Shown: positions 1 through 12,674 of the stretch, piece after piece
Layout: every line of letters begins with the position of its first letter
Numbering within the stretch: the stretch's first letter is position 1
Origin: Anaerolineae bacterium
GTDB taxonomy: Bacteria; Chloroflexota; Anaerolineae; S140-20
Assembly (NCBI GenBank): GCA_027021705.1
Contig: JALUTT010000054.1
Location: 1-12,674 of the forward strand
Length of the DNA stretch: 12,674 nt
Direction of reading: 5' to 3'
Notes under the pieces: model-generated
What the model saw: the letters and a program-made list of their open reading frames with translations, nothing else
What the model was told of the DNA's origin: nothing
The model's database searches: none
Program-made: the position numbers and the translations under genes

Positions 1-149
1 AGGTGCTGATATAGCAGGTCTCGGAACCGGCGAAGTTGGGATTCGCTCATACTCCCAACTTTGCCCGGTTCCGGCCTGATTGTCAAGTCCTCCCAAGGAT
101 GGGAGCAGCTTTGTCAAAAGTCCAATAATATATTACATAAGGAGGATTA
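1..149 (+). promoter_or_regulatory. CRISPR leader (possibly partial)
   Basis: Non-coding, directly abuts the first intact repeat, and has an AT-rich stretch at 111-149 (ttgtcaaaagtccaataatatattacataaggaggatta) in an otherwise GC-rich context. TTGTCA at 111-116 and TAATAT/TATATT at 126-134 are promoter-like, but their spacing is not canonical. Confidence 0.8.
22..73. repeat. Imperfect inverted repeat (about 20-bp arms) in or upstream of the leader; possible terminator or protein-binding site
   Basis: cggaaccggcgaagttggga (22-41) pairs with tcccaactttgcccggttccg (53-73), with one bulge, one G-U pair and an 11-nt loop. There is no clear poly-U tail. Confidence 0.7.
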
Positions 150-3100
150 GTCCCACCCCACAGAATCCCGACCGAGGGATTGAAACAGCATACTGATAAT
201 CTTCCTTGTCAACACTAATCTGAGTCCCACCCCACAGAATCCCGACCGAGGGATTGAAACTCGTATAACCATCTTAAACTCTCCTTACCGAATAAGTCCC
301 ACCCCACAGAATCCCGACCGAGGGATTGAAACATAAAGGAATTCCCTCTAGCAAAAAAGGCAGGAAAAAGTCCCACCCCACAGAATCCCGACCGAGGGAT
401 TGAAACTTCTCTTTTAATTTCGTCGGTTGCGGTGATTGTGGTCCCACCCCACAGAATCCCGACCGAGGGATTGAAACTCCCCGGCCGCATTCGATTCATC
501 TATGTAGGCGGCCGTCCCACCCCACAGAATCCCGACCGAGGGATTGAAACCGCCGGAGCCGGCCGTCCGCTCTGCGAGCAGCTCGAGTCCCACCCCACAG
601 AATCCCGACCGAGGGATTGAAACCGTGGTCGTTGTGGAACGTGCGCAGCTCTTCGGCCAGGTCCCACCCCACAGAATCCCGACCGAGGGATTGAAACCGT
701 AGGCCCCCTGCCCGGAAGTTGGTGTACATCTTGGGTCCCACCCCACAGAATCCCGACCGAGGGATTGAAACGGGCTCTATAAGGCCGGCCTGAGCACCAC
801 GGAGATCGTCCCACCCCACAGAATCCCGACCGAGGGATTGAAACCTCCTGGATGAATCCCCAGATTTTCTGGATGGCCGGGTCCCACCCCACAGAATCCC
901 GACCGAGGGATTGAAACTCTGACCGGTTTGGCCTATCTGAGACCTTAACACTCGTCCCACCCCACAGAATCCCGACCGAGGGATTGAAACACTCTATCGC
1001 CAATTGCGCCCTGATTTATTGCAACGGTCCCACCCCACAGAATCCCGACCGAGGGATTGAAACTTAAGAGCAAGGCCAGAGGATTCATCCTCTTGGGGCG
1101 TCCCACCCCACAGAATCCCGACCGAGGGATTGAAACTTATCAAGACACAATTCCAGATCCAGATATTTAAGGAGTCCCACCCCACAGAATCCCGACCGAG
1201 GGATTGAAACCATTATCACATTTAACCTATTCGGGCGCCCCGGACGGGTCCCACCCCACAGAATCCCGACCGAGGGATTGAAACAATCCGCTTTGCGTCA
1301 TTAGCAAGGCTTTTGACACAAGTCCCACCCCACAGAATCCCGACCGAGGGATTGAAACTCTGACCGGTTTGGCCTATCTGAGACCTTAACACTCGTCCCA
1401 CCCCACAGAATCCCGACCGAGGGATTGAAACAGGCGCTTCTACTTCCGCCTAGCGCTGGCGCTGGGGAGTCCCACCCCACAGAATCCCGACCGAGGGATT
1501 GAAACGAGGGATAGCGCAGCTACCGGAACCGTTCCGCCACGTCCCACCCCACAGAATCCCGACCGAGGGATTGAAACACCTTTCCGGCTCCCCAGCCGGA
1601 CCGGAGACCGGCGTCCCACCCCACAGAATCCCGACCGAGGGATTGAAACTCCCCCACGGACACCTTGTAGAGCGTGCTCTTGGCGTCCCACCCCACAGAA
1701 TCCCGACCGAGGGATTGAAACATCCCACTCTGCGGGATGGGGCTTGAGAGATTGAGCGGTCCCACCCCACAGAATCCCGACCGAGGGATTGAAACCTCGA
1801 GCAGGACCGCGAAGCGGCCCCGCTCCTCGAAGTCCCACCCCACAGAATCCCGACCGAGGGATTGAAACGGGATTCTGTGGGGCGGAGAACGCGCGACTTT
1901 AGAAAGTCCCACCCCACAGAATCCCGACCGAGGGATTGAAACATCCGGGATGCTGATGCCCTTTTCCTTGATCTGCTCGTCCCACCCCACAGAATCCCGA
2001 CCGAGGGATTGAAACGCCCTCTGGGCAATCCCCATCCTGATTAAGACCGCGTCCCACCCCACAGAATCCCGACCGAGGGATTGAAACCATTGCGGATTCC
2101 GACCGGGAAGCGGATATACCCTCCGTCCCACCCCACAGAATCCCGACCGAGGGATTGAAACCGGGGGGTGCTGCCCCGTGTCTATAGGGCTGAGGTGGTC
2201 CCACCCCACAGAATCCCGACCGAGGGATTGAAACGCAGCCCTCTTCGCTGGACAGCACGTCCACGAAGATGTCCCACCCCACAGAATCCCGACCGAGGGA
2301 TTGAAACCACCGGGATTGCTCATCGCATCAAGCGACACGCAGGCGTCCCACCCCACAGAATCCCGACCGAGGGATTGAAACCAGAAATGCCTGGAGGTTA
2401 TGCAGAATTTGGCCGAGTCCCACCCCACAGAATCCCGACCGAGGGATTGAAACTGTGCCCAGGCTGGAGGACGACGGCAAATACTATGTGGTCCCACCCC
2501 ACAGAATCCCGACCGAGGGATTGAAACCGGTCCACGTTCACCGACTATGGCCCATCCGCCGGAGTCCCACCCCACAGAATCCCGACCGAGGGATTGAAAC
2601 CTGAAGGAGGATGACTTCTCCTTCAGCATCCTCCGAGTCCCACCCCACAGAATCCCGACCGAGGGATTGAAACTGGAGGTGGTCCACGCCCCGACCGGCA
2701 ACCCCGCCTAGTCCCACCCCACAGAATCCCGACCGAGGGATTGAAACCATTAAATCTATGGTGGGAATTCCAGAAAACCGATGAGTCCCACCCCACAGAA
2801 TCCCGACCGAGGGATTGAAACCTCTAATGAGCTCCGAAACAGATTATAACGCTCAAGTCCCACCCCACAGAATCCCGACCGAGGGATTGAAACTGGCCAA
2901 ATTAGCAGTCATTCGCAATCAAAATGGCAAGTCCCACCCCACAGAATCCCGACCGAGGGATTGAAACAGGAGGAGATTAGAAAAACTAAGGCCCCGAACT
3001 AACGTCCCACCCCACAGAATCCCGACCGAGGGATTGAAACTACCTCGGCTTCTGGCCCGATTTACTTAGCTACCAGGTCCCACCCCACAGAATCCCGACC

Positions 3101-6100
3101 GAGGGATTGAAACGCAATCTTCCCCTTTTCCCGGACAAACACGGGAGAGGTCCCACCCCACAGAATCCCGACCGAGGGATTGAAACCTCCTCAGGGTTCC
3201 ACTCCACGGGAACGGGGTTGGGGGTCCCACCCCACAGAATCCCGACCGAGGGATTGAAACTTGAATTTGTTTCTCGGCCTTTAACGATTGATGGAAGTCC
3301 CACCCCACAGAATCCCGACCGAGGGATTGAAACTAGAACAGCCACTTCGAGCGTCCGACCGGGGCCAGTCCCACCCCACAGAATCCCGACCGAGGGATTG
3401 AAACTCAATAGCAATTCCAGCCCTAAATGAGAAAATTGAAGTCCCACCCCACAGAATCCCGACCGAGGGATTGAAACACCTACAATGAAGCCGTTGCGTT
3501 CTATAACAAACCGGTGTCCCACCCCACAGAATCCCGACCGAGGGATTGAAACTTCGAGGTGAACTTCTCGATGCTGAACGACGCTATTGTCCCACCCCAC
3601 AGAATCCCGACCGAGGGATTGAAACGGGAGGAGGATATAGTACTCAAGTACTACGATTAGGTCCCACCCCACAGAATCCCGACCGAGGGATTGAAACTTC
3701 CTTAATCCTCTTATTTTCCCTAACTCAATGTTAAGTCCCACCCCACAGAATCCCGACCGAGGGATTGAAACTAACAGCATTAGCAGTAAACGAAGACTTC
3801 ATCTGTAGTCCCACCCCACAGAATCCCGACCGAGGGATTGAAACTTCGACGGAGATTTTGAAGCTGTCGAAGAATTTATTGTCCCACCCCACAGAATCCC
3901 GACCGAGGGATTGAAACATTGAGCGAAACGGTCCCGTTATCGGCTACCGCTTTGGGTCCCACCCCACAGAATCCCGACCGAGGGATTGAAACTCCAAAGC
4001 CCGTTCCTTGTTGAGGTAAGCCCGAAGAGTCCCACCCCACAGAATCCCGACCGAGGGATTGAAACGCCCGGGCGCCGAGGCGCCGGCGTCGCCGGGCGAG
4101 TCCCACCCCACAGAATCCCGACCGAGGGATTGAAACGGGCCACAGGAGGGCCCGGAACCCCACGGGGATCTCCGTCCCACCCCACAGAATCCCGACCGAG
4201 GGATTGAAACGGTTCTCCGTAGCAGCCTCTCCCGCAGCCCGTCAACGTCCCACCCCACAGAATCCCGACCGAGGGATTGAAACCCGCCGCAGAACCGCCG
4301 CCACCACTCGCCCCGTCGGCGTCCCACCCCACAGAATCCCGACCGAGGGATTGAAACAGCCGGGAAGACACTTCTGGCTGGCCCTCGGCATCGGGGGTCC
4401 CACCCCACAGAATCCCGACCGAGGGATTGAAACAGCGGCTGGTTTCATTTCCCCATCTCCAGGATGGCCGGTCCCACCCCACAGAATCCCGACCGAGGGA
4501 TTGAAACCGCGAAGGGATCATCGAAGACTCCCATGACTTCCAGGTCCCACCCCACAGAATCCCGACCGAGGGATTGAAACTCCCCGGCCAGCGCGTCGAA
4601 ATCGCTCTCCTCCAGGTCCCACCCCACAGAATCCCGACCGAGGGATTGAAACAAGAACCAGGACCGGGCCACCATCGGGGGCCTTGAAGTCCCACCCCAC
4701 AGAATCCCGACCGAGGGATTGAAACCTGGCGCCGGGGGCATCCTGGCCCTCGGAGAGTCTCGTCCCACCCCACAGAATCCCGACCGAGGGATTGAAACAC
4801 GTCCTTCGTCGGCCGCCGCATATTGGCCAGCATAGTCCCACCCCACAGAATCCCGACCGAGGGATTGAAACGCCACCATCTGGGCCGCCGTCGAGCCGCT
4901 GGAGCATGTCCCACCCCACAGAATCCCGACCGAGGGATTGAAACGCCGACGCCGGCAACTTCCACGCCGAGATGGATCGGTCCCACCCCACAGAATCCCG
5001 ACCGAGGGATTGAAACCACGGCGAGGAGCCCCGCGAAGGCCCCTCGCCGGCGGGTCCCACCCCACAGAATCCCGACCGAGGGATTGAAACGGGAGCCCTC
5101 GGAATCGCCCCTCGGCATCATAGAGAGTCCCACCCCACAGAATCCCGACCGAGGGATTGAAACTCGGCCTCGGGCGCGGCCGAGGCGATGGTGGGGCTCG
5201 TCCCACCCCACAGAATCCCGACCGAGGGATTGAAACCGAGCCGGCCGAGCCGATTGACGACAAATTGAGCGCCGTCCCACCCCACAGAATCCCGACCGAG
5301 GGATTGAAACTCCGACCTGGCCGAGGCCCTCAAAAACGTGGGGCCCAGTCCCACCCCACAGAATCCCGACCGAGGGATTGAAACGAAGACCCGCACCGCC
5401 CCCTCCAGGACAGCTTGCCGGGTCCCACCCCACAGAATCCCGACCGAGGGATTGAAACCCAACCGCAGTCGTACCCTGCCCCGCACATCGAACATGTCCC
5501 ACCCCACAGAATCCCGACCGAGGGATTGAAACCGCGGCCCCCCGCCACGGGGCGTCCGGGCCGTCGTCGTCCCACCCCACAGAATCCCGACCGAGGGATT
5601 GAAACTTGTCAGGGCAACAGCAGACGGGACACTCCCCCTAGGTCCCACCCCACAGAATCCCGACCGAGGGATTGAAACCTCGTCGAAGACCAGGGTCACC
5701 GGGTAGGCGAGCCGGGTCCCACCCCACAGAATCCCGACCGAGGGATTGAAACTATACTCCACCGAAGCGTTTGTAGAGCTTGTCTGCAAGTCCCACCCCA
5801 CAGAATCCCGACCGAGGGATTGAAACTCGCCCCCGAGGAGGCAGGCGAGAGGGGACCTCGTGTCCCACCCCACAGAATCCCGACCGAGGGATTGAAACCG
5901 GTCAGCTTCTGGTCCTCAGAGCCGTTGTAGAAGGCCGGTCCCACCCCACAGAATCCCGACCGAGGGATTGAAACCTGGAAGCCTACGACATTCTGGAACA
6001 GGGTCTCAAGGTCCCACCCCACAGAATCCCGACCGAGGGATTGAAACGGTTTCCAGGTGGCAGGTGGTTCTGCCGCAGAACCAGGTCCCACCCCACAGAA

Positions 6101-9100
6101 TCCCGACCGAGGGATTGAAACATAGCCCTGCTCGCCAACCTCAATACCTGCTCGGCACGTCCCACCCCACAGAATCCCGACCGAGGGATTGAAACTCTCC
6201 CGGTCGCCACCGGAGACCAGCCGCTTGGGTCCCACCCCACAGAATCCCGACCGAGGGATTGAAACTTCCGCTCAACCTCGACATCCCAGAACGACATCAG
6301 GTCCCACCCCACAGAATCCCGACCGAGGGATTGAAACTGTCCAGGTGATGGATGACTCGGTGATACCCCCAAACGTCCCACCCCACAGAATCCCGACCGA
6401 GGGATTGAAACCCGCCAGAACGCGCAGGAGTGGTACGGCAGGATGTGTCCCACCCCACAGAATCCCGACCGAGGGATTGAAACTGTCTTTAAGGATGAGC
6501 ACCACGCCCTGGTTAACAGCGGTCCCACCCCACAGAATCCCGACCGAGGGATTGAAACCATCCAGCTAAGGACACCGGGATCAAACACCTGTGCCCGGTC
6601 CCACCCCACAGAATCCCGACCGAGGGATTGAAACCTCCTCCAGCACCCCCATTGCTTTGAGGATACCGGCCAGGTCCCACCCCACAGAATCCCGACCGAG
6701 GGATTGAAACCGCCTTGATTTCTTCCATCGCGGTCTCCTTTCCGGCGTCCCACCCCACAGAATCCCGACCGAGGGATTGAAACCGTCTTCGGGGACCGAG
6801 AGGGGGCCGGGACAGGAAATGGTCCCACCCCACAGAATCCCGACCGAGGGATTGAAACGGGCCAGAAGACGCGGAGTGTGATTCCACCACCGCGTCCCAC
6901 CCCACAGAATCCCGACCGAGGGATTGAAACACTACGTGGCTGCTCTGACCGAGGTGGCGGACGTTGGTCCCACCCCACAGAATCCCGACCGAGGGATTGA
7001 AACCGGCTGGCGGGGGCTTCTGGCGGGGCTCCGCGCCGCGTCCCACCCCACAGAATCCCGACCGAGGGATTGAAACGTTCCCGGCCCTCGCTGGGCTGGG
7101 GGGGGCGGCTCCGGTCCCACCCCACAGAATCCCGACCGAGGGATTGAAACGCTATTTGACCTGAAGCGGGCAATGGCGAGGCTGTGGTCCCACCCCACAG
7201 AATCCCGACCGAGGGATTGAAACTCAGGTGCCCTGCCGTTGACTATGCGAAGTAGGCCGTCCCACCCCACAGAATCCCGACCGAGGGATTGAAACCGGAC
7301 CTCGCCCGTCTGTTCGTCAACCGTAGTCCTGTCCCACCCCACAGAATCCCGACCGAGGGATTGAAACACCCTGCGGGACGGCGGATGTTATACTATCATC
7401 CCTGGTCCCACCCCACAGAATCCCGACCGAGGGATTGAAACCACAGGACCCGGTAGGCCCGCAGCATAGAGAGAAAGTCCCACCCCACAGAATCCCGACC
7501 GAGGGATTGAAACCAGCGCTTCCTACTTTCCCTGTTCCCGAACGGAGAGTCCCACCCCACAGAATCCCGACCGAGGGATTGAAACTCCCACGGCAGACGC
7601 ATACGGAGCAAGCTCCGGCTGGTCCCACCCCACAGAATCCCGACCGAGGGATTGAAACACCATGACGTGTCCGTCAACCTGTGCCCACATACTACGTCCC
7701 ACCCCACAGAATCCCGACCGAGGGATTGAAACCGGGAATGTGCCGACCCTGATTGAGGAATGGGAAGAGTCCCACCCCACAGAATCCCGACCGAGGGATT
7801 GAAACCCCAGACGATGGGGCGATCCGACATATCGTGTCTCAGTCCCACCCCACAGAATCCCGACCGAGGGATTGAAACGGCCGGGCGGCATATGACACCC
7901 CGACTCCCCTTGGTCCCACCCCACAGAATCCCGACCGAGGGATTGAAACCTACAATCCTTACCATGACAGCAGAGGGAGATTTGCGTCCCACCCCACAGA
8001 ATCCCGACCGAGGGATTGAAACCCCCTGGAGAGTGGAGGTCCATCGCGGCATGAGCGGGTCCCACCCCACAGAATCCCGACCGAGGGATTGAAACGGTCC
8101 AGTCCTGCGCCTCCTTCAAGAGGCGCAGGGGTCCCACCCCACAGAATCCCGACCGAGGGATTGAAACGGCCCGAAGGCCGCGGACGTAGTGGAACACCTG
8201 ATCGTCCCACCCCACAGAATCCCGACCGAGGGATTGAAACCTCTTCCCCTTGCTCTTCCCCTTTCCCTTGCTCCTGGTCCCACCCCACAGAATCCCGACC
8301 GAGGGATTGAAACGGAGAACAACCAGGTTGTATATGATGCGGAGAAGGCGTCCCACCCCACAGAATCCCGACCGAGGGATTGAAACTTCCCCTATCCCCC
8401 AGGTTTGTGGCCTTGCGCCACGGTCCCACCCCACAGAATCCCGACCGAGGGATTGAAACTTCCCTTCTTCTTCCACTCGGGAGGAGAAGTTATAAGTCCC
8501 ACCCCACAGAATCCCGACCGAGGGATTGAAACAGGACCTATGATACCCTGACCAAGGTGATCAGGGCGGTCCCACCCCACAGAATCCCGACCGAGGGATT
8601 GAAACCAGGAGTTCTAGAGAGGCATCGAGACGCCGTATCGCGTCCCACCCCACAGAATCCCGACCGAGGGATTGAAACTTTCGGGTAAATCTGTCAACCC
8701 TCTCCCAACCTCCTGGGTCCCACCCCACAGAATCCCGACCGAGGGATTGAAACGTCATACAACCACACCTTACGCGGGAGATCAACCTTGAGTCCCACCC
8801 CACAGAATCCCGACCGAGGGATTGAAACGGGCATCGAGTAGACCCCTTCTCCGGGGAGATCCTGGGTCCCACCCCACAGAATCCCGACCGAGGGATTGAA
8901 ACCCGCTTCTCAGGCGCTCTGCCTGGAAGCACCCTCGGGTCCCACCCCACAGAATCCCGACCGAGGGATTGAAACTCGGACCACCAGATGGGAGGGTCCG
9001 GGTTCGACGTGCGTCCCACCCCACAGAATCCCGACCGAGGGATTGAAACTGCAGCTCGGGGCTCAGGCTGGCGATCGCCTCCCCCAGTCCCACCCCACAG

Positions 9101-11982
9101 AATCCCGACCGAGGGATTGAAACCTATCGCTCTCCTCTTCCCGAGGAGAACCAACCGCCGTCCCACCCCACAGAATCCCGACCGAGGGATTGAAACCATA
9201 CGGATAGGGGAGTGTTCCTGCTACCAGACCCCAAGTCCCACCCCACAGAATCCCGACCGAGGGATTGAAACCAAATCCGCCGGATAGCACACGGATTAGC
9301 GTGTGATGTCCCACCCCACAGAATCCCGACCGAGGGATTGAAACCCGCCCCTGCTCTTGGAGCGGGAGCCCTTGTACTTGGTCCCACCCCACAGAATCCC
9401 GACCGAGGGATTGAAACCCGGATCATAGGCGATCAGAGCGCGGGCGACCTCGGGTCCCACCCCACAGAATCCCGACCGAGGGATTGAAACCCGCACTCCC
9501 TTTATGGAGATCGTGCTCCTCGGATAGTCCCACCCCACAGAATCCCGACCGAGGGATTGAAACGGCCAGAGCGTCTGCGTGTTGCTGGAGTTGCGTGCGG
9601 TCCCACCCCACAGAATCCCGACCGAGGGATTGAAACAACATAGCACTCGCAACCGACCGACCGATCATCTACCGTCCCACCCCACAGAATCCCGACCGAG
9701 GGATTGAAACGCTCTACCGCTGGAGGCTCAATGATGGGTTTAGCACGGTCCCACCCCACAGAATCCCGACCGAGGGATTGAAACTCTGGTTGCGCGGCCC
9801 TCTCTCTTAGCGAAGAGGGCTGTCCCACCCCACAGAATCCCGACCGAGGGATTGAAACTTTATCGGCAAAGACGTGGTATCCCACATCCTGCATGTCCCA
9901 CCCCACAGAATCCCGACCGAGGGATTGAAACGCAAATGCGATAAGGAGATCTCCGGGTCACTGGATATGTCCCACCCCACAGAATCCCGACCGAGGGATT
10001 GAAACAGCGGCTATTACCTCCTCACGCTCCAGCAGGAGGAGGTCCCACCCCACAGAATCCCGACCGAGGGATTGAAACTTGCCCACATCCGAGGTGGTAC
10101 TCCATCCCCGGCGGGTCCCACCCCACAGAATCCCGACCGAGGGATTGAAACCTGTCCAGCGAAGATGGCTGGAGCCGCGCCATAGCGGGTCCCACCCCAC
10201 AGAATCCCGACCGAGGGATTGAAACCGATCTGGTCGGGGCTGATGGGGGAGAAGCTATCCCGTCCCACCCCACAGAATCCCGACCGAGGGATTGAAACCT
10301 TCCTCCTGTAAAGGGGAAGGACAGGAACGAGAGGAGGTCCCACCCCACAGAATCCCGACCGAGGGATTGAAACCGGTTCACCCCCTCCCTTGACCGGGCT
10401 GACCTGGAGGTGTCCCACCCCACAGAATCCCGACCGAGGGATTGAAACAAGCTGGAGAGTCGCTCTTCGGTTGCGATCAGCCGCGTCCCACCCCACAGAA
10501 TCCCGACCGAGGGATTGAAACCTCTCCCACAGAATCCCGACCAAGGGATCAGCACCTTGTCCCACCCCACAGAATCCCGACCGAGGGATTGAAACGATCA
10601 GAGCGAAGAGGTTGACATCTTTTTCCGGGAAGTCCCACCCCACAGAATCCCGACCGAGGGATTGAAACCTCCCGGAGCTCCTGGGGGAGGAGTGGGAGGA
10701 GATCGTCCCACCCCACAGAATCCCGACCGAGGGATTGAAACTCCAGTGCGACTTCTCCATCATCCACGATGGAGAAGTCCCACCCCACAGAATCCCGACC
10801 GAGGGATTGAAACCATGCTGGTTTAAGTTCTTGGATGTGTTTTGAGATAAGTCCCACCCCACAGAATCCCGACCGAGGGATTGAAACGCAGCCGTAGAAG
10901 ATTAGCACGCTCTCCAACTCCCGTTGGTCCCACCCCACAGAATCCCGACCGAGGGATTGAAACAGCCCCTCCTCCCTGCCATACGCTCCCGCGCATAGCA
11001 GTCCCACCCCACAGAATCCCGACCGAGGGATTGAAACCGCAGACGGCCGTTCTCACCGTATCTGGCGGTCTTAAGTCCCACCCCACAGAATCCCGACCGA
11101 GGGATTGAAACCGGATGAGAGCCAAATCCGAGATGCGCTTGAATATGGTCCCACCCCACAGAATCCCGACCGAGGGATTGAAACCTCCTCCTTCCCACCC
11201 TGCGCCGAGGGGGAGAGCGCGGTCCCACCCCACAGAATCCCGACCGAGGGATTGAAACGGAGATATTATAGGGTTTTTTAAGAATCTGTATGATGTCCCA
11301 CCCCACAGAATCCCGACCGAGGGATTGAAACAGCAACCGGCAACCGATAGCCGACCGATCTACCGTAGTCCCACCCCACAGAATCCCGACCGAGGGATTG
11401 AAACCCTGCCCGGCGGCCTGGCGTGGGGCGCGTCCTCCCCTAGTCCCACCCCACAGAATCCCGACCGAGGGATTGAAACAGCCCCTCCTCCCTGCCATGT
11501 ACCAGCCACTAGCGCAGTCCCACCCCACAGAATCCCGACCGAGGGATTGAAACTGGGGAAGCGAGAAGTGCGGATAGAATACATGGGGGGTCCCACCCCA
11601 CAGAATCCCGACCGAGGGATTGAAACGCGATAAGGCGTCTGGAGGAAAAGCTGTCCTCCATGTCCCACCCCACAGAATCCCGACCGAGGGATTGAAACAG
11701 GGAAGAGATATGGGAACTAGTTGGAGAGGGAAGATGTCCCACCCCACAGAATCCCGACCGAGGGATTGAAACGGGGCGGTCGTCCGGTCGGTGTTGGCCT
11801 CGGGCCGCGTCCCACCCCACAGAATCCCGACCGAGGGATTGAAACCGCGCCTGCGCTGGCGCGGGCGCGGGCTCGGGCCTCGGTCCCACCCCACAGAATC
11901 CCGACCGAGGGATTGAAACGATTACATTAACATCTTGCAGCGCGGCCTTGGGCGGGTCCCACCCCACAGAATCCCGACCGAG
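150..11982 (+). CRISPR. CRISPR array: 161 full 37-bp repeats plus one truncated 27-bp repeat (11956-11982), 161 spacers of 33-39 bp (mean about 36); likely class 1, tentatively type I-D
   Basis: The repeat recurs every ~73 bp from 150-186 to 11883-11919. It contains the hairpin AATCCC-GACCGA-GGGATT and ends in ATTGAAAC, typical of Cas6-processed repeats. Orientation comes from that 3' end and the AT-rich flank on the left. Subtype is inferred from repeat length and style and from implied GTN PAMs; no cas genes are in the window. Confidence 0.99.
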
Positions 11983-11995
11983 CATCTTCTAAATT

Positions 11996-12001
11996 TGTCA
12001 A
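11996..12001 (-). promoter_or_regulatory. Consensus -35 hexamer (TTGACA) at the IS right end, facing outward
   Basis: Plus-strand tgtcaa at 11996-12001. IS110/IS1111 elements typically carry a right-end -35 that pairs with a left-end -10 at the circle junction. No -10 follows in the integrated state (GTCGGG at 17 bp). Confidence 0.6.
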
Positions 12002-12034
12002 GTCGTCGGGAGGCAGGCAGGGGGCAACGGCCGC

Positions 12035-12459
12035 AGGTTGGGGCAACCTCGGCGAAGGGAAGCGAGGGGATAACGGTTCTCTCGGTCCACGGACAGGGGT
12101 GCGATCCAGAGGGGCTACAACCGGACCAACGGGCTCCCCAAGGAGCCGCCCCGCCAGCCACGGGGAGTGAGATACGGCGTCAAGCGCCCACATCTCCCTG
12201 CGGCGCTAAGTGGGCTGCTCCCAAAGGCGGGATGAGCCTGACCACGCTAGGCAACGGCGTCAAGCGCCCAGGGGAGTTGACGGCGTCGCTCGCGCCCGTT
12301 GCGGGAGCCCCGGGGGAGCACCCCGGCCGGGCCGGGGGAACCGACCTGGCTCTGCCGGCCTCATCGGAAGGCGGGCCGGCGTCGGGGGGGCCTGGGCATC
12401 CTCTCCGGGAACCGAGGGGGGGGCACGAGGCCAGATCACGGGATCACCCCTCCCAAGGG
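12035..12459 (-). ncRNA. Putative bridge/seek RNA of the IS110-family element (boundaries approximate)
   Basis: Internal-loop modules share one layout: 8-9-nt left guide, 2 nt, inner stem-loop, 9-nt right guide. 12408-12355 matches the element end (donor-like) and 12123-12074 matches the repeat at the insertion point (target-like). Two more modules lie at 12278-12247 and 12198-12167. Small hairpins occur at 12132-12147 and 12035-12049. Confidence 0.55.
12174..12270. repeat. Perfect 17-bp direct repeat acggcgtcaagcgccca (12174-12190 and 12254-12270), with a variant third copy at about 12280-12297
   Basis: Read directly; the copies are 80 bp apart. Each forms a GGCG-CTTGA-CGCC mini-hairpin on the minus strand. 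Confidence 0.9.
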
Positions 12460-12674
12460 TCAACGGCGGCGGCCCCGCTTGCGGCGACCCCGCTTGCGGC
12501 GGCCGCCCCGCTGCTTCTTGGCCTGGCGGAAAGCCTCCCACCGCCGAGCCACCTCCGCCTCCATCTCAGGGGTGGTCTGATCCCGGAAGGGCTCATCGGC
12601 CTGCACCAGGTGGAAGCAGATCCGGTTGACCCGATGGGCGGCGTGGATGGTCGCTTCCACCTCGCTCTTGCCCC
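12460..12674 (-). CDS. C-terminal end of a probable IS110-family transposase/recombinase; 5' part lies beyond the window
   Basis: The frame is open to the window edge: GKSEVEATIHAAHRVNRICFHLVQADEPFRDQ...RRKRGRRKRGRRR* (stop at 12460-12462). GK-x4-A-x-I-x-A-A-x-R-x2-R-I-x3-L-x4-EPF resembles the usual IS110 C-terminal helix (GK..K.A.vA.ArKL.ri...l....py). Recognised by eye; the catalytic domains are not in view. Confidence 0.72.
   Translation of the reverse strand, partial: GKSEVEATIHAAHRVNRICFHLVQADEPFRDQTTPEMEAEVARRWEAFRQAKKQRGGRRKRGRRKRGRRR
12473..12501. repeat. 15-bp-period tandem duplication encoding the RRKRG-RRKRG basic tail
   Basis: ccccgcttgcggcg at 12473-12486 and 12488-12501. Confidence 0.85.

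Follow-up and report, generated by a model that had tools for sequence, protein, structure and literature searches.

The stretch examined here is the whole of contig C54 (12,674 nt; JALUTT010000054.1 in assembly GCA_027021705.1) of an Anaerolineae bacterium, referred to below as the window, and it carries a CRISPR array that breaks off within a repeat and continues as non-array sequence. The question raised by this locus is what entered the repeat and how the site was chosen. As set out below, positions 11983-12674, read on the minus strand, are very probably the 3' part of an IS110-family insertion sequence (IS) lying in a CRISPR repeat at a CT core dinucleotide, with a two-loop guide RNA encoded downstream of its transposase gene. 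The genome is a 183-contig short-read bin, assembled at k=127 and 95% complete, and the orientation of the array was read from the ATTGAAAC-type 3' end of its repeat, which we take to indicate direction. The array, the junction and the element are laid out as follows:

150..11919, plus strand: CRISPR array of 161 full 37-nt repeats (GTCCCAC...GGGATTGAAAC) with their spacers
11956..11982, plus strand: repeat 162, cut after base 27; the right target flank, reading on the minus strand as the CT core followed by CGGTCGGG...
11981..11982, minus strand: core dinucleotide CT of the right junction; complete relatives L021 and L027 have CT at either junction
11983..12674, minus strand: right-hand part of the IS110-family element, running off the contig, with only the final 70 codons of the transposase
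11983..12002, minus strand: right-end terminus CTTGACAAATTTAGAAGATG, the left-donor sequence, conserved in relatives, with a -35-like TTGACA at 11996-12001
12460..12672, minus strand: C-terminus of the transposase, 70 codons and the stop codon, IS110 family by homology

On re-reading of the sequence, the anatomy given in the original prediction proved correct in its coordinates and letters: repeat 162 ends at base 27, non-array sequence begins directly past it at 11983, and the minus-strand junction, given there as GAAGATG-CT-CGGTC, reads ...GAAGATG-CT-CGGTCGGG, the intact repeat being GTTTCAATCC-CT-CGGTC. The 691 nt past the junction matched five other contigs of the bin at 96-99% identity (C86 over 613 nt, C104 over 224, C106 and C121 over 174 each, and C140 over 102), the recurring stretch shared with them being 11984-12621 (638 nt). 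All five element-end junctions of the genome (window, C86, C104, C106 and C121) adjoin CRISPR repeats at the homologous position, and in each the element end ...CTTGACAAATTTAGAAGATG-CT is followed directly by the repeat. Three repeat types are involved: type A (window and C106), with the intact site GTTTCAATCC-CT-CGGTCGGG; type B (C86 and C121), with GTCTCAACCCC-CT-CTTCATCGG; and type C (C104), with ATTTCAATCCC-CA-ATCAGGCGG, where the junction reads GCT followed by AATCAGG. The left parts of the three sites are similar and the right parts dissimilar. The bin offers no extension of the window, since its final 20-53 nt recur nowhere else in it. Contigs from public sequencing runs (X1-X4), which were compared as contigs only, with depth figures unusable as copy number, hold 11850-12674 and run on past 12674; these runs are hydrothermal-vent metagenomes from at least three studies, and in one of them the same element end is joined to repeat type B, not type A.

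A further boundary lies inside the shared stretch:

12621..12622, no strand: homology with the internally deleted copies (C86, C140) stops, tandem repeats standing in for the gene body

In runs X1 and X3 the same joint at 12621/12622 also turned up as a loose end. The copies on C86, C140 and C113, in which a genome-wide 157-bp tandem repeat takes the place of the gene body, are internally deleted derivatives. The tandem repeat, of ~157 bp, lies at C86 1-948, C140 103-1250 and C113 29758-30356 and occurs also on C84, C99, C49, C52 and others; within the deleted IS copies it adjoins short GAGGACC repeats. Separately, positions 1561-1719 of C86 hold a ~160-bp insert with inverted termini of ~11 bp (GTGATTGTTCC...GGAACAGTCAC) and an 8-9-bp duplication, 26-34 nt from the right end of the element, which by these marks would be a miniature element nested in the IS.

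The identity of the interrupting sequence as a member of the IS110 family, as originally proposed, was borne out by homology of the transposase. Over 69 aa, the tail of the open reading frame (ORF) shares 69.6% identity with residues 430-498 of P0038, a 498-aa protein with precomputed PF01548 and PF02371 domains, and this identity of ~70% to the C-termini of one subfamily of ~495-aa PF01548+PF02371 transposases extends as far as the stop codon. At the other end of the protein, contig C71 holds an N-terminal fragment with 76.9% identity over 65 aa to the N-terminus of P0038. When 40 relative genomes were searched at the DNA level, a single 35-nt match was returned, which led to a contig of the same architecture and hence to the wider family: this contig holds a 502-aa ORF, ~740 nt of non-coding sequence and an end ...CTTGACAAATTCTTACAATG-CT, followed by a CRISPR repeat without its first 13 nt. 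The 502-aa protein scored 25.2 bits against PF02371, above the cut-off of 21.3, and aligned with PF01548 over profile positions 2-155 of 155 at 16.7 bits, below the cut-off of 29; the window tail is identical to it at 18 of 43 positions. Its homologues (153 at E <= 1e-3 among 8000 scored candidates) are mostly of 495-510 aa with both domains. The domain check that had been suggested thus came out divided, with both profiles present in the closest full-length relatives and no match on the window fragment: the 70-residue tail itself matched nothing in Pfam or NCBIfam, the window holding only the residues C-terminal to the PF02371 domain while the PF01548 region lies outside it. Beyond the window, hand translation of the loose end in a public run gave LNAFDRGKC, which continues the frame and fits the family consensus ...DAxxRGKSEVEA.

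Species genomes yielded 41 loci with relatives (44 confirmed by tblastn) and metagenomes 80 of 148 confirmed loci, and most of these come from Anaerolineae, Caldilineaceae, Ardenticatenaceae and other Chloroflexota. Complete relatives are units of 1.7-2.3 kb, and the ends are conserved across loci, with (G/A)(G/A)TATAA(A/C)C on the left and TTGACA-N13-(A/C)G, then CT, on the right. In L021 and L027 the whole arrangement can be read as GTTTCAGTACC-CT-[AATATAAAC...TTTGGAAGATG]-CT-CAATTCGGG within a long array with repeats on both sides; these are simple insertions at the CT core, with no longer target duplication, so that the proposed insertion at a CT core within a CRISPR repeat stands both on the window junction and on the CT found on both sides here. 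The left-end junction is present in further copies within one array in L023 and L025.

That CRISPR repeats are the habitual landing site, as had been supposed, was supported by flank counts made among 76 distinct elements, alongside the five copies in this genome. CRISPR evidence of any kind was present for 49 of the 71 distinct relatives with a readable flank. The left flank was repeat-like by a loose motif in 35/51 cases (2.9% at 20,000 random positions for the same motif) and by the strict motif GT[TC]TC[AC] in 22/51, and the right flank lay within an in-locus spaced repeat in 26/63. Ten bases of left target, CT and 12 bases of right target occurred intact as a repeat elsewhere in the same locus in at least 10 of 43 two-flank elements, including one with the repeat type of the window (L057); this is a lower bound because most contigs are shorter than 3 kb. 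The same element end was also found at non-CRISPR sites, with four independent elements at GCGATTGCC-CT or its one-base variant GCAATTGCC-CT.

How the site is chosen was approached through the non-coding region between the stop codon and the right end, which is 476 nt long in the window and 300-750 nt in relatives, in keeping with the long region expected downstream of the transposase. Loops of a guide RNA are reportedly the targeting mechanism of IS110 elements, as described in work attributed to Durrant et al. 2024 and Hiraizumi et al. 2024. An alignment of the 3' non-coding regions revealed two modules with similar inner hairpins, the first of which was predicted to form the target-binding loop and the second the donor-binding loop:

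12233..12295, minus strand: predicted target-binding loop of a bridge/seek-type RNA (covariance model R1, 55.1 bits, E 2.4e-10)
12270..12281, minus strand: left guide strand GTCAACTCCCCT, within the target-binding loop
12255..12269, minus strand: inner hairpin, within the target-binding loop
12245..12254, minus strand: right guide strand TTGCCTAGCG, within the target-binding loop
12149..12206, minus strand: putative donor-binding loop, with GCAGGGAGATGT (12190-12201), hairpin GGGCGCTTGACGCCG (12175-12189) and a 3' strand

The covariance model R1 was built on the first module from 21 seeds and superseded a noisier combination of regular expressions and stem heuristics; it was searched in the window and 99 loci, leaving out five near-duplicate, six further and eleven distant or partial loci. 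It gave 77 matches in the 100 sources, one per element save for two each in L093 and L115, each match lying 3' of the gene on the strand of the transposase. In an alignment (A5) that had been fitted to the model, 97.8% of the cells in its helices were paired as compared with 86.6% in shuffles (0/500) and 21-61% when the partner was slid, and 74 cells were changed on both sides as compared with 25 in shuffles.

The guides covary with the flanks, as had been anticipated. The loop's 5' strand runs in the sense of the left target followed by CT, and the match is an exact 11/11 for GCGATTGCCCT in L026, L031 and L036. In permutation tests, which ignore relatedness, the left-guide score (best ungapped run) was 5.81 for cognate pairs against 4.81 +/- 0.17 when permuted (0/5000; 49 pairs) and 5.65 against 4.70 for distinct guides and targets (0/5000; 39 pairs), while the right guide, the 3' strand ending in AG, made 1.33 consecutive pairs with the right target against 0.69 +/- 0.11 (0/5000; 60 pairs), pairing with zero leading right-target bases in 21 of the 60. 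Many guides of the family resemble repeat ends (for example CAGTCCCCT, CAGTACCCT, CAATATCCCCT and CAATCCCC), and that of the window resembles the conserved repeat end GTTTCAA(T/C)CCC, which is GGGATTGAAAC on the other strand. The copy on C86, in repeat type B, has the same loop sequence as the window. From the guides and flanks, target recognition looks left-dominated, which would explain how one element could enter three repeat types. Among the relatives, L013 and L070 are near-identical elements with the same loops at different sites, one a CRISPR repeat (right flank CGGTCGGGATTC) and the other non-CRISPR (AATTGGATTC); in this pair the right guide fits the non-CRISPR site better.

The assignment of the donor-binding loop is partly supported by sequence likeness. 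The second module opens with a GCAGTAGATG-like sequence, similar to the right end AGAAGATG, and in relatives its 3' strand is the complement of CT plus the first three left-end bases in three variants, the covarying pairs being ATCAG with GAT, ATTAG with AAT and ACCAG with GGT. In the subfamily of the window, the right-donor guide showed no convincing match to GGTATAAAC. Joining of the ends, as right end, CT, GG and left end, aligns TTGACA and TATAAA at a spacing of 17 nt (13 nt + CT + GG), which by its layout would be the circle-junction promoter of the family with its -35 and -10 elements; such a promoter has been described for the IS110 family (PMC10883916, PMC11187229). The public-run contigs, a comparison that yields no joints, showed no circle. 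A contig-end sequence shared by C86, C106 and C121, called X, was tried as the left end and rejected: the true left end is (G/A)(G/A)TATAAAC, and X belongs to another element. Diverged copies of the right-end terminus (CTTGACAAATCGAGAAGACGCT) were noted at C108 52040-52061, where the copy is isolated, and at C71 43042-43067, where it directly precedes a left end CT-GGTATAAAC with TTGACA 19 nt from TATAAA; the latter may be a remnant end used as a target, or a source of a fixed promoter.

A number of results weigh against this interpretation, in addition to the fitting of the helix alignment to its model and the disregard of relatedness in the permutations. PF01548 had no match in the whole bin, at 95% completeness, because of which an intact transposase is not established for this genome, and PF02371 matched one unrelated fragment only. 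No contig of the bin reads GTTTCAATCC-C(T/C)-GGTATAAAC, the left end of the window's own copy being unassembled. A single-sequence fold of 12140-12300 gave no two-loop shape (z -0.78), a result that is uninformative because the two near-identical hairpins pair with each other; a search of 11900-12674 against Rfam returned only two chance-level miRNA matches (E 1.6 and 2.4), and the stretch was held by 0 public RNA runs. Within CRISPR-like targets alone, the left-guide signal was weaker (5.35 vs 4.81; 45/5000; 26 pairs). As to the guide of the window, the ungapped score of GTCAACTCCCCT was 8.5 for type B, 5 for type C and 4 for type A, its own repeat, and against type B the CT falls one base out of register; the right guide predicts AGGCAA, and the leading bases able to pair with this guide number 0, 0 and 1 in the three right flanks observed. 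The idea of a right-target guide programmed against the repeat in the window is not supported by these pairings, and the accompanying suggestion that the cognate target is a related repeat fits the higher score for type B than for type A. For the left guide to fit types A and C, one or two bases must bulge, as is also seen in other CRISPR-inserted members.

The original prediction had placed the target-binding loop elsewhere in the non-coding region, in a stretch that the alignment of relatives describes differently:

12074..12123, minus strand: family-conserved part of the non-coding region, not a target guide

On that proposal, the guide for the right target would be GACCGAG and that for the left target GTAGCCCCT. 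The strings were read correctly (CGGTT 12123-12119, GTAGCCCCT 12118-12110, GACCGAG 12087-12081, AACCG 12078-12074), GACCGAG is an exact 7/7 complement of CTCGGTC within a loop closed by CGGTT/AACCG, and, allowing wobble, homologous 7-mers could also pair with CTCGGTC (GGCCGGG in L114 at 7/7; GGCCAGG in L057 and L070 at 6/7). The stretch is nevertheless conserved regardless of the target. G(T/C)AG in its left half is kept in 20/20 aligned subfamily members whatever their target, and the 7-mer fits G[GA]CC[GA][GA][GC] in 14/20, including members with right flanks CAGAACA, CCTATCA, TGCGGGG, ACAGCAT and others; conservation across unrelated right flanks argues for a conserved motif rather than a programmable guide. 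Exact GACCGAG was present in 0/19 relatives, including three with the same right flank (CGGTCGGGA), which have GGCCAGG or GGCCGGG, as do members with unrelated flanks, and the copies in repeat types B and C carry a near-identical GACCGAGG despite their different right flanks. By chance, GACCGAG occurred in 7.8% of 5000 dinucleotide shuffles of the 476-nt region, rising to 10.7% if any of three junction words was accepted, and the left string, with its 5/9 match, scored equally well against other repeat types; the signal above chance is the junction of the element end with CRISPR repeats, recurring in all five copies. RNAalifold over the region gave a weak structure (-6.49 kcal/mol, covariation term -0.35). 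It is thus very improbable that 12074-12123 is the target-binding loop.

The two other alternatives concern the element itself and the role of its loops. That the flank is a non-mobile trailer or leader shared between arrays, or a CRISPR-associated regulatory module copied between them by recombination, could be argued from the array orientation, with all five genome copies at the distal end of an array contig, and from the resemblance of the TTGACA motif to a promoter. This distal position is an effect of assembly, since contigs break at the repeat at k=127; in addition, a transposase ORF lies at the end of the flank, the complete 1.7-2.3-kb units found as relatives have array on both sides, and the same end occurs at non-CRISPR sites, leaving this account scarcely any credibility. 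An IS110-family element found in CRISPR repeats because insertions survive in such a harmless multicopy site, or because the protein recognises it, rather than through guidance by the loop would accord with the shortness of the right-guide matches and their absence in 21/60, with the one or two bulged bases required by many left-guide matches, and with members that combine a repeat-like left flank with an unrelated right flank. On the other hand, position and orientation do not vary, insertion being at the CT core throughout, the guide strand follows the left flank, including 11/11 matches at non-CRISPR targets, and loop guidance is an established mechanism of the family (PMC11187229), so that this account is unlikely, if less so than the foregoing ones. 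Two further candidates were set aside, namely an IS200/IS605-TnpB element with a 3' omega RNA, as the protein is IS110-like, and a CRISPR-associated transposon (CAST) or tracrRNA-like module, as one flank is common to three repeat types.

Under the preferred reading, an IS110-family element, with its DEDD 'bridge recombinase', would have recombined into the CRISPR repeat at the CT core, probably through a circular intermediate, with catalysis by the transposase and a two-loop guide RNA transcribed from the region downstream of its gene. The left guide GTCAACTCCCCT, which reads in the sense of the left target and the core, would therefore pair with the bottom strand; the 3' strand of the loop ends in AG, the complement of the core, and the few bases preceding it would pair with the right target, while the donor-binding loop (~12149-12206) would resemble the element's own right end. 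As the left guide would mimic the GTTTCAA(T/C)CCC end conserved in this repeat class, and pairing with the right target appears short and dispensable, a single guide could serve for entry into several CRISPR types; in this genome repeats of three types adjoin the same element, whose guide is identical wherever it is readable. Joining of the right end, CT and the left end (GG-TATAAAC) would then create a promoter with a -35, a 17-nt spacer and a -10. IS110-family RNA-guided elements are known to choose multicopy targets. Tentatively, the left guide of this clade may have become specialised for the end of CRISPR repeats that encodes the handle, giving a left-dominated recognition in which one RNA serves for several repeat types and making its members parasites of immune memory, a possibility that we consider somewhat less likely than not.

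If so, the element could silence or split immunity: such parasitic elements could separate the leader from the spacers distal to them, and deletions or inversions from one repeat to another might also be driven by them. In many uncultured Chloroflexota from several habitats, one RNA-guided system seems to target the genomic store of another. The natural guide/target pairs, with relaxed pairing on the right side, may be useful for specificity rules of bridge recombinases; the insertions may be one reason why arrays in metagenome bins are split or orphaned, and they offer a case in which the exploitation, or disabling, of adaptive immunity by mobile DNA can be tested.

Several other observations were made in the interrupted arrays. 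In the Ardenticatenaceae locus L021 (4729-4835), the right end of the element is followed by a partial repeat, one spacer and then a second 37-nt unit, after which the array ends. This second unit joins the terminal 11 nt of the element (TTTGGAAGATG) through CT to the 24-nt remainder of the repeat, and looks like a hybrid leader-proximal 'repeat' duplicated by spacer acquisition after the insertion, which suggests that arrays can still acquire spacers beside the element and, if true, that adaptation copies a fixed length rather than a fixed sequence. A second, different element interrupts the same arrays, at array ends on C98 and C142 and at array starts on C86, C106 and C121. Its ends (GGAGGGTCGGACC... 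and ...CTGTCTTTCCCTC) are both rich in GGTTACG/CGTAACC hairpin repeats, its genes are unassembled, and it is associated with a 5-bp duplication (AAGAG) in type B and a 7-bp overlap in type A; a homologous end on an unrelated metagenome contig (L078:1-110) adjoins a repeat at another position. Possibly this is a transposon of the class that leaves 5-bp duplications, likewise with a preference for CRISPR arrays. The opposite end of the window holds the end of yet another element:

1..149, no strand: end of another multi-copy insertion sequence, outside the finding, splitting the same array from contig C155

Positions 1-149 and C155 23707-23851 are the inverted ends (TTGTCAAAAGTCCAATA...) of this insertion sequence, copies of each being found at the ends of four or five other contigs, and it probably splits one long type-A array into C155, with the leader and 63 repeats, and the window.

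With regard to known systems, the element had been likened to the IS1111 group, which is defined by subterminal inverted repeats of 11-13 bp (PMC11187229). None were found in 15/15 complete relatives, whose longest inverted matches (3-7 nt) were not above shuffled controls, and the family is therefore not IS1111 proper. It shares with IS1111 and its seekRNA a long target-determining non-coding region downstream of tnp and the use of multicopy targets, while lacking the defining repeats, and fits the exception of some IS110-type elements that have a 3' non-coding region (PMC11187229); on these features it is best filed as IS110-type with a 3' non-coding region. With the bridge RNA system of IS621 (bioRxiv 10.64898/2026.10.21.760802) it appears to share a DEDD+Tnp recombinase, a two-loop guide RNA, the CT core, a left guide in the sense of the target and a right guide complementary to it, the absence of any duplication beyond the core and a promoter formed at the circle junction. 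It differs in that the RNA of IS621 lies in the 5' leader and that of the present family downstream of the gene, and in a larger transposase (~495-500 aa), a very short natural right-target pairing and the CRISPR repeat as habitual target.

Among other IS110-family elements, ISPpu9 is likewise tied to short genomic repeats, the REP sequences (PMC12288879), and ISC1229 of Sulfolobus has a 3' flank with repeat-like binding sites for the CRISPR-repeat protein Cbp1 (PMC10883916); the parts of these two papers drawn on differ from the present case in reporting no CRISPR-repeat insertion. In the full-text literature, with preprint mining supplements outside the scope, no report was found of IS110-family elements targeting CRISPR repeats, the repeat-targeting elements found there being only Tn7-like elements and one phage. 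The cyanobacterial Tn7-like transposons (PMC11837452) also use CRISPR repeats as attachment sites in a fixed orientation, often with several per genome and sometimes at non-CRISPR sites. They rely on a protein of the TnsD type and enter the adjacent spacer, so that the repeat stays whole, whereas the element in the window belongs to the IS110 family, is probably RNA-guided and interrupts the repeat at CT without a 5-bp duplication. The phage PhiAP1.1 (cited in PMC11837452) integrates, like the present element, within the repeat, and is said there to silence downstream spacers; it is a temperate phage with its own integrase, and the element described here an insertion sequence with a predicted guide RNA.

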